From the NCBI GenBank assembly GCA_013239625.1, contig MU053810.1:5054071-5118070 (forward strand): a stretch of 64,000 nucleotides of DNA, given 5' to 3'. A program made the position numbers and the translations under genes. The notes beneath the pieces were generated by a model. That model searched no databases. It was not told where the DNA came from and was given only the letters and a program-made list of their open reading frames with translations. Positions within the stretch are counted from its first letter, which is position 1. Each line of letters starts with the position of its first letter. Below are positions 6,352-23,522 of the stretch, one piece after another. Source of the stretch: Lama guanicoe. Taxonomy: Eukaryota.

Positions 6352-6399
6352 TTAGACTCGATACTTTTCTTTGCCGTGTTCATTGATCCCACATATGTG
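6352..6399 (-). CDS. PRTFDC1: PRTFDC1 terminal exon 9, coding part (HICGINEHGKEKYRV*)
   Basis: tttcag|CACATATGTGGG...CGAGTCTAA, 48 nt including the stop codon. Confidence 0.95.
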   Translation of the reverse strand, partial: HICGINEHGKEKYRV

Positions 6400-7529: not shown

Positions 7530-7766
<237 letters not shown>

Positions 7767-10618: not shown

Positions 10619-10665
10619 AGTCAGGTCTAAAGCCATCACTTCTAGATGTTCTCTTCACCAACAAA
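10619..10665 (-). CDS. PRTFDC1: PRTFDC1 exon 7 (LLVKRTSRSDGFRPD)
   Basis: 47 nt. Acceptor gatag, donor gtaagt. The peptide is visible inside ORF 10500..10724. Confidence 0.96.
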
Positions 10666-11133
10666 CTATCATTAAAAAAAAAAAAAAGCTTTAGTAATCC
10701 AGATAAAATGTCTGTGAATGGCAAATAGAATTGAGCATCATTAAAATATGTATTTGAAACATGCTATTATTCTCCCCTGGAGCACTTGGGGCATCAGCAC
10801 CGCCCTCTAATTTCTGCTCCTGCGGCACCACATCAGGGAGATTCTGGATGAAAGGAAGGGAGAGGGGCACGGGCCCTGGGGCTCAGCCAGCTGCTCCTGG
10901 AAACAGCTAATGGAGGCAGAGGAAAGAGGGGCTCAGACACACAGCGAAGCACGTCCTCTTCCCTTTCCTCTCTCTCAGGCTAGCAGTCCAATGGGCTGTT
11001 TGTTCAGTGTGGCCAAACTGTAACACCCCAGGGCAAAGGGTCTGCATTCTTTGGAGACAGCATCCTGTGTCAGCATCCCTCTTGGGCTGGTTTGGAAAGA
11101 CAGAAACAAGGATGACGTGAATGCCTTACTCAC

Positions 11134-11200
11134 CTGGCTACCTTAATCATGTTGGGCTTGTGAGCAAAGCTTTCATGGTCCTCCCCGTTCCGACAACATC
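11134..11200 (-). CDS. PRTFDC1: PRTFDC1 exon 6 with 16-nt deletion (DVVGTGRTMKALL then frameshift TSPT*)
   Basis: gcaaag|GATGTTGTCGGAACGGGG...GTAGCCAG|gtgagt, 67 nt. KPNMIKVAS is present but out of frame, and there is an in-frame TGA at 11147-11149. Confidence 0.93.
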
Positions 11201-12044
11201 CTTTGCAAAGAGGACAGACAAATTCAGTCAAATGCATTCGGGCTGCATTAAAAGGCTTTTTCATCCAGACAGATGATTCTATTCCTTATTAATAATGCAT
11301 CGTAACTAGGATTGCTGTCAAATTGGAGTCAAAGCACGAGGCAGAGCTGGTTATATTTTTTAGACAGGTGCTTCTTTCTGGAAGCTGGGTTTGAGGGGAT
11401 ATATTGGTGCCTGTTTCCTCCTGGAATCTTTGAGCTGTGTTGAAAGGCTAAATTCAGCCTTTGGAGAGCATGTGGGGCTCTTCATTGAGTGCATTTGGAC
11501 TCGTGCACGCACATTCAAGGACTAAATTTGGCCCCGAGGTTATGTAACACAATACAGCGCGCATGAATTTTCATGGACATGGGATGTACATCTGAATACT
11601 CTGAATGGATAAACGCCTCCCCCTCACTCTCCGCACTTAATAGAGGATTCTGTGGCTGGGAAGTGAGATGTGTCTGGACAGCAGCTGGTGACAGCCTGTG
11701 GGTTCAGAGGGTGCGAGGCTGCCGCGAGCTGAGGCTCGTCCCCGCTGACGAGCTGCCGCACAATGAGAGCAGAATGGGCGGCAGACGTGTATTGTCCCTG
11801 GGACAGAAATCAGCTGTCAGGAGCTGATTATCAAAACAACAGGTCTGAATTTAGCCAGGGTTGGGCAATTCGTTTGGCTAGAGGGTCTCCTGCATGGGTT
11901 ACGTCTGCGCCAGAAGAGCTGCAGATCCATGCGGTACACAGGCGACCGTAACAAAAGCTTGAAAACAGCTTCCCTGCATTTTCGCCAGCTGACAACCCAG
12001 GCGTGCTGTGCGATACGGTCCGTTCTTTCTTTCTCTCTCTCTTT

Positions 12045-12202
12045 TTAAAACTTTTAATTAATTTCTTGCGACTTTTTCCGGGGGGGGGGGTGTCGGTAAT
12101 TAGGTTTATTAATTTATTTTTTAAATGGAGGTGCTGGGGATTGAACCCAGGACCGCGTGCATGCTAGGCATGCACTCTGCCACTGAGTTATACCCTCCCT
12201 CC
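12045..12202 (-). mobile_element. tRNA-derived SINE (camelid vic-1-like)
   Basis: Reverse complement carries the B-box GGGTTCAATCCCCAG, the tRNA-like head and a cctaattac-C-run tail. Confidence 0.85.
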
Positions 12203-12264
12203 TTTTTTTTTAAACAGAAAACAAATTAAATTAAATTCTAGCTTTCCTCTGGATAGCCATTTTA

Positions 12265-12405
12265 CTTACTTATTTATTTTTTTTTTGCGAGGGAGGGGCG
12301 ATAGGTTTACTTGTCTGTTTATTTTTGGAGGAAGGACTGGGGACTGAACCCAGGACCCGGTGTATATTAAGCACGCGCTCTACCACTTGAGCTATTCCCT
12401 CCCCC
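12265..12405 (-). mobile_element. tRNA-derived SINE (camelid vic-1-like)
   Basis: Same family motifs (gaacccaggacc, ctctaccac-gagcta), flanked by catttta on both sides. Confidence 0.8.
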
Positions 12406-12836
12406 AAGGCATTTTAAAATTGACTGTATTCTTGATTTGGATGTTGAAGGGAGAATTGCTCCAAGTCATTAGAGGTCATTAGCAAGGACCCTGAATTAAG
12501 GGTAAAGACAGTTCTAACCTTGGTTTTACTATGAAAAAAATTTTGGCTTCCTCTTCTGTAAAAACGTCTGATTCAGAAATAGGTGTAAGAATTAATCTAG
12601 ACATGTATGGCATTAGATATAAAACAGGATAGAGCACCATGCAACAATTTCTGCAAAGCTATTCTTCTAAGTTATTTCAAGCTAGTAATTCTAGTTGACT
12701 CCTTTTCTATAAATTTGGAGAGCCCTGTACACAGTGGGAATTCAGTAAGTCCTTGGCCAATTTGATAACAAATTCTGTATTTTGAAACTCACCATTAGAT
12801 TCTTTCAACTTCCAAATATGGATTAAGTCAGCTTAC

Positions 12837-12854
12837 CTCAACAATGAGGACATT
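12837..12854 (-). CDS. PRTFDC1: PRTFDC1 exon 5, 18-nt micro-exon (NVLIVE)
   Basis: tttcag|AATGTCCTCATTGTTGAG|gtaagc. Same size and peptide as HPRT-family exon 5. Confidence 0.95.
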
Positions 12855-16725: not shown

Positions 16726-19700
16726 ACAGTAATTTCTTGATATCATAGAAACCTAGTACATATTTAAATTTCCCCAGTTGTCCTCCAAATGGCCTTTGCT
16801 GTAGCTGGTTTGTCCAATCTAAGACCATGCGTTGGATCTTTAATTCTCTTTTCATTTAGAATAGTCTCTTTTTCTGTACTTCTGTTTCTCAAGTTAACAA
16901 TTTTATACACTGTCTGTTTACTATATTACATAATAGATGAGACTTTAATTCTTTCACACTACCTCCCTTCTTTTCCCCATCCCCCAGTGCTACCTTGTTA
17001 TGACCGTATCTTCTTGTACAGGTTACATTTTTTTTTCCCACTACAGAGTCAAGTAGTATACTATAATATATTTCCTTTTAGAGCCCGTTTACTTTCATGG
17101 AATTCCTAATTGTTTTTCCTACCATCTTCCAGTGTCTTATACAGCCATAACCCTTCTTTTTTCTGCTTTTTCTTTTTCTTTTTTTCCCCAGCAAGCTCTT
17201 CTTCCTTAAAAGCAGTATTATGAGAAAAATAATGCTTATTATTTTATTAATAATTTATTATTAATAGAATTATAAGTTTTTTATTGGTTAGTTATGGTTT
17301 AATTACATGTCTCAAAGGATTTTGGAGGATTAAGAAAGCTAAATGGGTTGCTAACATCTGTAAAAACACAGAACTTTCTGAGTTTCTTATAACACTAAAA
17401 AAGTAAAATTATTTAGCAGGCTTATAAATGACAGGCAAGGGAATCCTGATATAGAAAAACTGTCTGTACTGAAAGGGAATGATGCAGAAACCTGGAGTTC
17501 TTTAGTGCATTACATAGAACAGTCATTACATGAATATTTATTTTCCTTCATAGAACATCAACTATGTTTTCAAACTCTTTCACTAGTAATATATGGATTT
17601 ACTGTCTGGATTTTTAGTGGCCCATCTATTGTGTGAAAAGCTCACCTCCAACAAAAGCAATGTCTTCAGTACCTTCGGAAGACTGGCTCGGCCACGCAAA
17701 ACAAGAAGTAGCCTGAGACTAGAGAGAAATTGACTACCCCAACTTTGGAAGCATTTTCAGTACCTACCGTCTACGAGAACCATGCTCTTTATACTTGAAT
17801 GGGCCAAGATCGGCTCCACAAGCCAAGAGACAAAGACTGACTCATCTTTATATGATCAGTATATAGCATGGAGACTGGTATGCTGTAGGTGTTCAAAAAA
17901 ACAGTGCTTGTGGAACAAATCAATTCTGACCTCCTTTCTTTCTCTAGTTCATCATAGTTTGACACATGTGCTCCACTTTTCTCCTTAATGATGTACAATT
18001 CCTCCTTCACTGAGCTATAATTAATGTCTACTGCTTTTAATTTTGCATTAAGAAATCTTCTAAAATTCCCATCTTTTTGAGTGGGCAACCTTGGGGAATT
18101 TTTTCGGAACACACTGTGCCTCCTTAAACACTTCCCATCTGATCACTCCCATCACCGAATCGGAGATGTTCGCCAGTTACTGTCTTAGTCACCTCATCAC
18201 ACCCAGCTCACTTCCTCCCAGAGAGCCAGTAAAATCTGCAGCCTGGGGGCCGCAGGCAAAATTCCTGTGGGGAATCTCCAGAGTGTGTTCCTTCTTTTCT
18301 GTGGCCTGATGGACCCTCATCCCATCGAGTTTCCTTAAGAAAAAGAGAAGGAAGAAAGAGAAGAAAAGAAAGGAGGAAAGAGCGATGCAAATCTAAATGA
18401 TTTTCTTAAATAGGTTATTCCTCCTTTCAGTCTTTAAACATGCAAAACAGTGGCACACCACAGTCTAATCTTTGGTGATGTATTTTTGTGGCTGTGGTCA
18501 CTCTGAGCAGAGAGATGGCAGGGGTGATGATGAGCTGATCATGGATGCTGAGCATGAGTGGGAGTGAGGATGTAAACCCTACAGAGAAAGGCATGCGATC
18601 CAGCATTTCACTTTATGTGACAATTCACAGAACCGCCAGAATCATCAGTCGGTGGGCATTTCCATGATTGTTCTCAGCTAGTCAGATGCAATAAAAAGGA
18701 ATGATTTAAACAGTTCAGGCAGCCAAGGAGGAGATTTTGGCAGGTTCCGGTGCTCCACTCTGGCACGTGATTAGAAACTTATTTGGGGTGCGGGGTAGGG
18801 GGTGGGTGGCATGGCTCCTGAAATCTTGCTCTTAACCTGCACATCTGTGTTTTTCTGCTGCCGGATTTGGGCCTGTTTCCATGCATTTGGTTTTAGTCCT
18901 CCCTTTCAGAGATTTTCTCTTGAACATGAATAAAATCGTCTTGCTTTAATGGCTACACACATTTTATGAAGTGCCAGGATTAAATCAACTTTGAAAAAAA
19001 TCAGCCAGAGAGCGCGCTGTGCAGACAGCTTAAACACACCGACCGCGTTTTACACTGTGAGCTGAGGGGGCCATTGCACTGAAGCACTGAGCACTCCTTT
19101 TATTCAACAGTCGTGACCTATTTAGAACCATGACTCAGCCAGCCTTTCTTGTGAGCTTTCTTCTTTTTGCTTTAAAAAAAAAAGGGGGAGGGAGGGAGGA
19201 AGGAAAGAAGAGAAGAGAAAAGAAAAAAGGAAGAAAGGAAGAAAGAAAGAAAGGAAGAAAGAAATCTTGCACTTAGCTTGCACATCTGTGTTTTTCTGTT
19301 GCCGAATTTGGGACACTGGGCACTCCTGTCCCCTGCTCTGCTGTGTCCCCAATTCCACTGTTCTTGCTCCCTCTTCTGTGCTGTTCCCAGACCTACTGGT
19401 CCCAAGTAAAACCTCACCCTCTCTTCTCTAAGGCAATTACAGTCCCAAGGCAACCCTCCTTCTTTGGATTTCCTTAAGCTCAAGGAAAAAGTCTTAAGTG
19501 GAAAGATCCCTAAAGTTCTCAGGGTGCTGAGCAGGAGTATACAAGTTCACGGCCGAGTTAAGAATTTAATGATAAAGGCAACTTCAATGGACATTGGTTG
19601 ATTGAGAAATCGTGTGATTCCTCTATGAGAAGGGAGAAGTTCGATGACCCGTAACAACCCTTCCAATGTAGGTATTTACCCAGTGCATGCTCCATCCAAT

Positions 19701-23456: not shown

Positions 23457-23522
23457 CTTTCCAGCCAGTGTTGAAAGAGCATCGCCTCCAATTATCCGCA
23501 TCTCACCCATGGACTGGTCGTT
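23457..23522 (-). CDS. PRTFDC1: PRTFDC1 exon 4 (NDQSMGEMRIIGGDALSTLAGK)
   Basis: 66 nt, phase 0/0. Acceptor ...ttttttag, donor GTTTGT. The translation matches the PRTFDC1/HPRT exon 4 peptide. Confidence 0.95.

Follow-up and report, generated by a model that had tools for sequence, protein, structure and literature searches.

Probable loss of PRTFDC1 in the South American camelid lineage by a 16-nt deletion in exon 6

The PRTFDC1 gene was found on the minus strand of the window (the whole 64,000-nt stretch of Lama guanicoe DNA that was analysed), with its first three exons lying outside the window on the same strand of the same contig, G000:C1724. These were exon 1 (5141888-5141841, 48 nt), exon 2 (5133639-5133533, 107 nt) and exon 3 (5128186-5128003, 184 nt). 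Within the window, exon 4 (23457-23522, 66 nt) was in frame and carried the private substitutions Q122R and D128A, and exon 5 (12837-12854, 18 nt) was intact and read NVLIVE. Exon 6 (11134-11200) was followed by exon 7 (10619-10665, 47 nt) and exon 8 (7602-7678, 77 nt), both intact and out of frame, and by the coding part of exon 9 (6352-6399), comprising 48 nt up to the normal TAA and containing the private V214G change. The sizes of 48, 107, 184, 66, 18, 67, 47, 77 and 48 nt followed, with the sixth as the exception, the nine-coding-exon layout of HPRT-type genes, as in human PRTFDC1 (2jbh) and its mammalian orthologues, and they summed to 662 nt versus 678 nt for 225 codons and a stop. The start codon was intact and all splice sites were canonical AG/GT. 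Two short interspersed repeats, which we take to resemble a camelid tRNA-derived SINE, were observed within intron 5 at 12050-12420.

The gene was assigned as the PRTFDC1 orthologue by a glycine at the position of the HPRT catalytic aspartate (G145), within a DVVGTG motif. When the exon 6 peptide was compared with PDB chains, the best match was human PRTFDC1 2jbh (E 6e-4), and HPRT chains were recovered at E of about 1. The translated gene was identical to the gorilla PRTFDC1 protein at 208 of 219 comparable residues, and HPRT1 itself was located on a different contig, C9319.

Exon 6 (read from 11200 to 11134) lay between an acceptor AG preceded by a pyrimidine tract and a donor GT, and measured 67 nt instead of 83. 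Its frame 1 translation was DVVGTGRTMKALL-TSPT-stop, where the premature TGA at 11147-11149 (minus strand) followed residue 158 and lay 13, 60 and 137 nt upstream of the three downstream junctions. The peptide KPNMIKVA was recovered in another frame starting at 11159, with two leftover bases at 11161-11160. The deletion junction was placed at 11160-11161 on the minus strand, with 16 nt gone where relatives encode S-S-I-E-K-Y; the identity of the deleted bases was deduced from the protein and may shift by one. Unlike in the human and other mammalian orthologues, the frame was thus lost at codon 155. The paralogous HPRT1 exon 6 of the same genome was 83 nt long. A pattern running from DVV to KVA matched 95 of 145 proteins and spanned 27 aa in 95 out of 95 (4 of the remaining proteins had variant ends and the others were unmatched). 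A tandem repeat was looked for in the exon 6 region and none was present. The preliminary description of this DNA had reported a 67-nt exon, the TSPT-stop reading, KPNMIKVAS out of frame beyond a junction at about 11160/11161, a loss of 16 nt relative to an 83-nt exon and a stop located 137 nt ahead of the final exon junction. All of these were reproduced by the AG/GT-flanked segment, its translations, the HPRT1 and protein comparisons and the computed distance to the exon 8/9 junction. Exon 6 was the sole frame break of the gene, as a read-through with X at the lesion gave no further stop or shift.

The exon 6 region was present once in the genome. No second PRTFDC1 copy was found, and all other family matches that were read were HPRT1 or HPRT1 retrocopies; two weak matches (E 0.3 and 0.7) lie outside this count, and some sequence may be missing from the assembly. 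With a single locus among the matches read, compensation by a second PRTFDC1 copy was rejected. One of the HPRT1 retrocopies (L009, G000:C8810, ~13,938,200-13,939,600) was a processed copy of very recent origin: it matched the coding exons of its parent at 98.5-100% identity, carried a poly-A tail and bore what looks like a 17-bp target-site duplication. Its open frame was lengthened to 258 aa by a frameshift in the last exon, and the remaining predicted enzyme was intact. The other (L011, G000:C3686, ~15,490,800-15,491,400) was an older, broken copy of ~86-93% identity with stops and shifts.

Further, the gene was compared with its closest relatives, the PRTFDC1 proteins of Camelus (XP_010980260.2, XP_010966262.1 and XP_032329465.1). 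Exon 6 was full length in all six Camelus protein models that reach it, from dromedary, Bactrian and wild camel, and the seventh model (wild camel, 148 aa) stopped after exon 3. These are protein models, in which RefSeq can silently correct frameshifts; the names shown carried no low-quality label and the three species agreed. A pan-camelid deletion was ruled out by these intact exons, so the deletion common to camelids that had been put forward as a check of a fixed ancestral loss did not hold. The assignment of the DNA to a camelid stood: the 5' leader, translated with one frame switch, matched that of Camelus at 104 of 115 positions, and an 18-nt exon described below was otherwise seen only in Camelus models. 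Because Camelus retains exon 6, the deletion would have arisen after the split from the Camelus side, most likely in the South American (llama/alpaca) lineage. This split has been dated to ~16.3 My, in a group of seven living species (PMC12127551). The genome differs from all three Camelus species at residue 146 and in exon 6 of this gene, which by elimination among the seven leaves a South American camelid as its probable source. No Lama or Vicugna protein record was present among the matches listed (229 + 31 proteins, large clusters being represented by the best 15 of 258 and the best 15 of 84), which is not evidence of absence.

Other differences were observed between the two camelid sides. 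Unlike this genome, all Camelus models carried T146M in the PRPP loop, at a position that does not vary among 56 other proteins, and the Bactrian and wild-camel X1 models were without I139. An alternative exon 5-like segment was located at 17646-17663 (minus strand, 18 nt, AG/GT-flanked), which reads TLLLLE, has the size and phase of exon 5 and replaces exon 5 in Camelus models; none of the non-Camelus models compared contained it. An earlier lesion of exon 5 common to camelids, considered since Camelus reads TLLLLE or NVLVE there, was rejected as exon 5 was intact in this genome. It was also noted that a 115-aa in-frame upstream extension of the Camelus models was frameshifted in this genome (L020, ~5,141,890-5,142,230 of G000:C1724), and due to this frameshift the extension is probably an untranslated leader rather than protein.

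The selection acting on the gene was estimated from amino-acid changes. Six substitutions were private to this genome in comparison with 18 proteins: Y41H, E54D, R55W, Q122R, D128A and V214G, one of them at an invariant position and one replacing Arg by Trp. Each of 7 non-camelid cetartiodactyls showed 0-1 private changes, and dog, rat and kangaroo rat showed 5-8, over longer branches. The translated 5' leader was used as a rough neutral yardstick, as an amino-acid proxy in place of dN/dS. Divergence from Bactrian camel was 10/218 in the core versus 11/115 in the leader (ratio 0.48, Fisher p 0.096). The pig versus deer control gave 6/225 in the core and 36/98 in the leader, a ratio of 0.07, where the contrast may be inflated because the control mixes two deer species and the leader is partly misframed. 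The six changes compared with 10.5 expected under neutrality, which suggests that PRTFDC1 was unconstrained for about half of the branch, or some 9 My; the range around this estimate, 2-16 My, rests on small counts and takes no account of yardstick error. Such values suggest that selection on the gene has been relaxed for several million years and, given relaxation over about half of the branch, the deletion allele probably predates the Lama/Vicugna split. Against an old loss stand the single frame break and the clean exons 7-9 and splice sites, which also fit a younger loss.

It was proposed that PRTFDC1 is here most likely a unitary pseudogene, inactivated in South American camelids once their lineage had separated from Old World camels. 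The locus showed both a frame-disrupting coding lesion and no intact second copy that could be found. According to this proposal, the 16-nt deletion would place a stop after residue 158 of the only PRTFDC1 gene of the genome, and the transcript carrying the premature stop would be removed by NMD. The loss would have been tolerated because HPRT1 performs the salvage work and PRTFDC1 would be a dispensable near-pseudoenzyme. PRTFDC1 cannot be taken as inert in every species, as its knockdown impairs myogenic differentiation in pig myoblasts (PMC12737788). Nothing that was tested supported an adaptive reading of the loss. The lineage-specific loss put forward in the preliminary description was supported and was narrowed to South American camelids, since Camelus keeps the frame.

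The PRTFDC1 proteins of other mammals were also compared. Of 181 long proteins, 94 were full length and colinear, and 21 of the 94 differed at one of 18 chosen active-site positions. Six of the 21 were Camelus, with T146M plus the I139 loss or the alternative exon, ten belonged to a horse/ass/zebra cluster with Y112C, E141K and D201G at HPRT active-site positions, one was a sloth with D201G (P0119), and four were pig or bear models reading through an intron, which look like annotation artefacts. Because isoforms were counted separately, these 17 models stand for only three lineages, Camelus, Equus and sloth. In Equus and in the sloth the function has likely decayed with the frame unbroken, and the comparison suggests that PRTFDC1 decays repeatedly. 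In addition, the listed Mesoplodon (beaked whale) models P0006 and P0229 diverged past exon 3 and a Kogia (pygmy sperm whale) model, P0007, skipped exon 4; either further decay or minor isoforms may explain these models. A tentative extension, to which we give rather less than even credence, is that the function was already lost in the common camelid ancestor, and independently in horses and mouse. The llama-lineage frameshift on one side and the Camelus T146M, I139 deletion and substitute exon 5 on the other would then be two later scars of one early relaxation.

The presence of the deletion in sequencing runs was assessed with 52 sampled words from 10900-11400 of the window, for which an intact 83-nt allele was expected to give a share of ~0.94. 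Fourteen of the 24 runs listed were DNA runs containing 0.98-1.00 of the words, and they came from 7 studies with 5 organism labels. All 52 words were contained in nine of them (4 organism labels, 5 studies), the 5 others had a share of 0.98, and the fifth organism label was seen only at this lower share. Under random word sampling, the chance that no word crosses the junction was 2.7% and that at most one does was 13%; as the same 52 words serve every run, this is a single test, not nine. All 14 DNA runs were flagged as a possible assembly source, though only one sample can be. The RNA runs contained 0.04-0.31 of the words, which is not evidence on expression. The run list was ranked by share, hence carriers of an intact allele drop out and heterozygotes are invisible; for this reason the run data document a wide presence of the deletion and do not establish fixation.

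It is conceivable, and in our estimate unlikely, that PRTFDC1 is a polymorphic pseudogene, in which the deletion is a null allele that is common without being fixed, or that fixation was reached only in some South American camelid species. The bias of the list toward deletion carriers fits such an allele, as do the single frame break of the gene and the share of 0.98 for the fifth label, which an intact allele would reach with a chance of ~13%. However, four organism labels contained every sampled word, and the six private missense changes, including those at the invariant position and from Arg to Trp, point to a relaxation that was long.

A stop is expected to trigger NMD when the last exon junction lies over 50-55 nt downstream of it. 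For the premature stop of PRTFDC1 this distance was 137 nt, and on these grounds the transcript is predicted to be removed. Any truncated product would retain the PRPP loop and be without residues 155-225, including K173, F194, V195, D201 and R207, whose HPRT counterparts, matched through alignments, presumably bind purine, Mg and pyrophosphate. That the locus still functions, either through a 158-aa protein escaping NMD or through a frame-restoring spliced form, was judged improbable. In its favour, the gene retains its start codon, exons 1-5 and every splice site, short isoforms occur among primate and other models, and PRTFDC1 may be a non-catalytic regulator (PMC3144895, PMC12737788). Yet 3 of the 6 private changes fell in exons 2-3, a part still present in a truncated protein. 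Of 7 exon-skip patterns, 5 ended in a premature stop, and the two in-frame skips deleted 69 or 75 residues. Within an interval reaching from 200 nt upstream of exon 6 to 100 nt downstream of it, fourteen AG/GT pairs opened the frame, and every one lost the DVVGTGRTM loop; the four sharing the real donor had tracts of 6-9 pyrimidines out of 17 versus 13/17 at the real acceptor. Enumeration of skips and AG/GT pairs thus yielded no splice form restoring both the frame and the PRPP loop, and on this basis frame rescue by splicing was set aside.

That the deletion is an error of assembly or consensus calling was considered very improbable: a 16-nt loss in non-repetitive sequence would be an unusual error, and runs from 7 studies and 5 labels, only one sample of which can be the assembly source, contained 98-100% of the words versus the ~0.94 of an intact allele.

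PRTFDC1 is described as a modifier of HPRT deficiency (a Lesch-Nyhan model) with uncertain enzymatic activity; a PRTFDC1 transgene had no detectable effect in wild-type mice and raised aggression in Hprt-null mice (PMC3144895). The gene was absent from the available text and supplements of PMC12127551, from the parts of the supplements of PMC5865188, PMC6386725 and PMC7498332 that could be searched, and, as far as its main text goes, from the TOGA2 preprint. Neither these sources nor the papers listed in literature searches described a PRTFDC1 loss in camelids; public TOGA tables or the RefSeq status may already record it. A metagenome pattern scan returned 0 matches. The lesion is real and probably unreported so far, and it is of an ordinary kind, the loss of a dispensable paralogue.

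The loss reveals no new mechanism and no trait was tied to it. If true, it would be a natural knockout in a large healthy mammal, indicating that PRTFDC1 is dispensable beyond rodents, and as a second knockout it would test the claim from pig cells that the gene is needed in muscle differentiation. Repeated decay makes the camelid case less surprising and the set of losses more valuable: together with the wear in camels and horses, the present loss would allow a comparison of gene loss versus trait. If the function did disappear early in camelids, the repeated losses would also form a comparative set for the function of the pseudoenzyme and for testing whether it modifies HPRT deficiency.

The closest known counterpart is the mouse Prtfdc1 pseudogene, where the same gene was inactivated in one mammalian lineage and kept by its relatives. 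Mouse Prtfdc1 is inactivated, whereas every other vertebrate sampled has the gene (PMC3144895, citing Keebaugh 2007), and the rat, Apodemus and Acomys models looked full length. Unlike the mouse loss, the present one occurred in a different order of mammals, and the two are therefore independent, as had been claimed in the preliminary description; it is likely the second, independent loss of PRTFDC1 after that of mouse. The lesion is also of the same kind as the camelid gene losses presented in PMC12127551, which are frameshift or nonsense inactivations limited to one camelid tribe; the part of that study bearing on gene loss covered only genes inactivated in Old World camels, and the PRTFDC1 deletion would be a similar event on the South American side.
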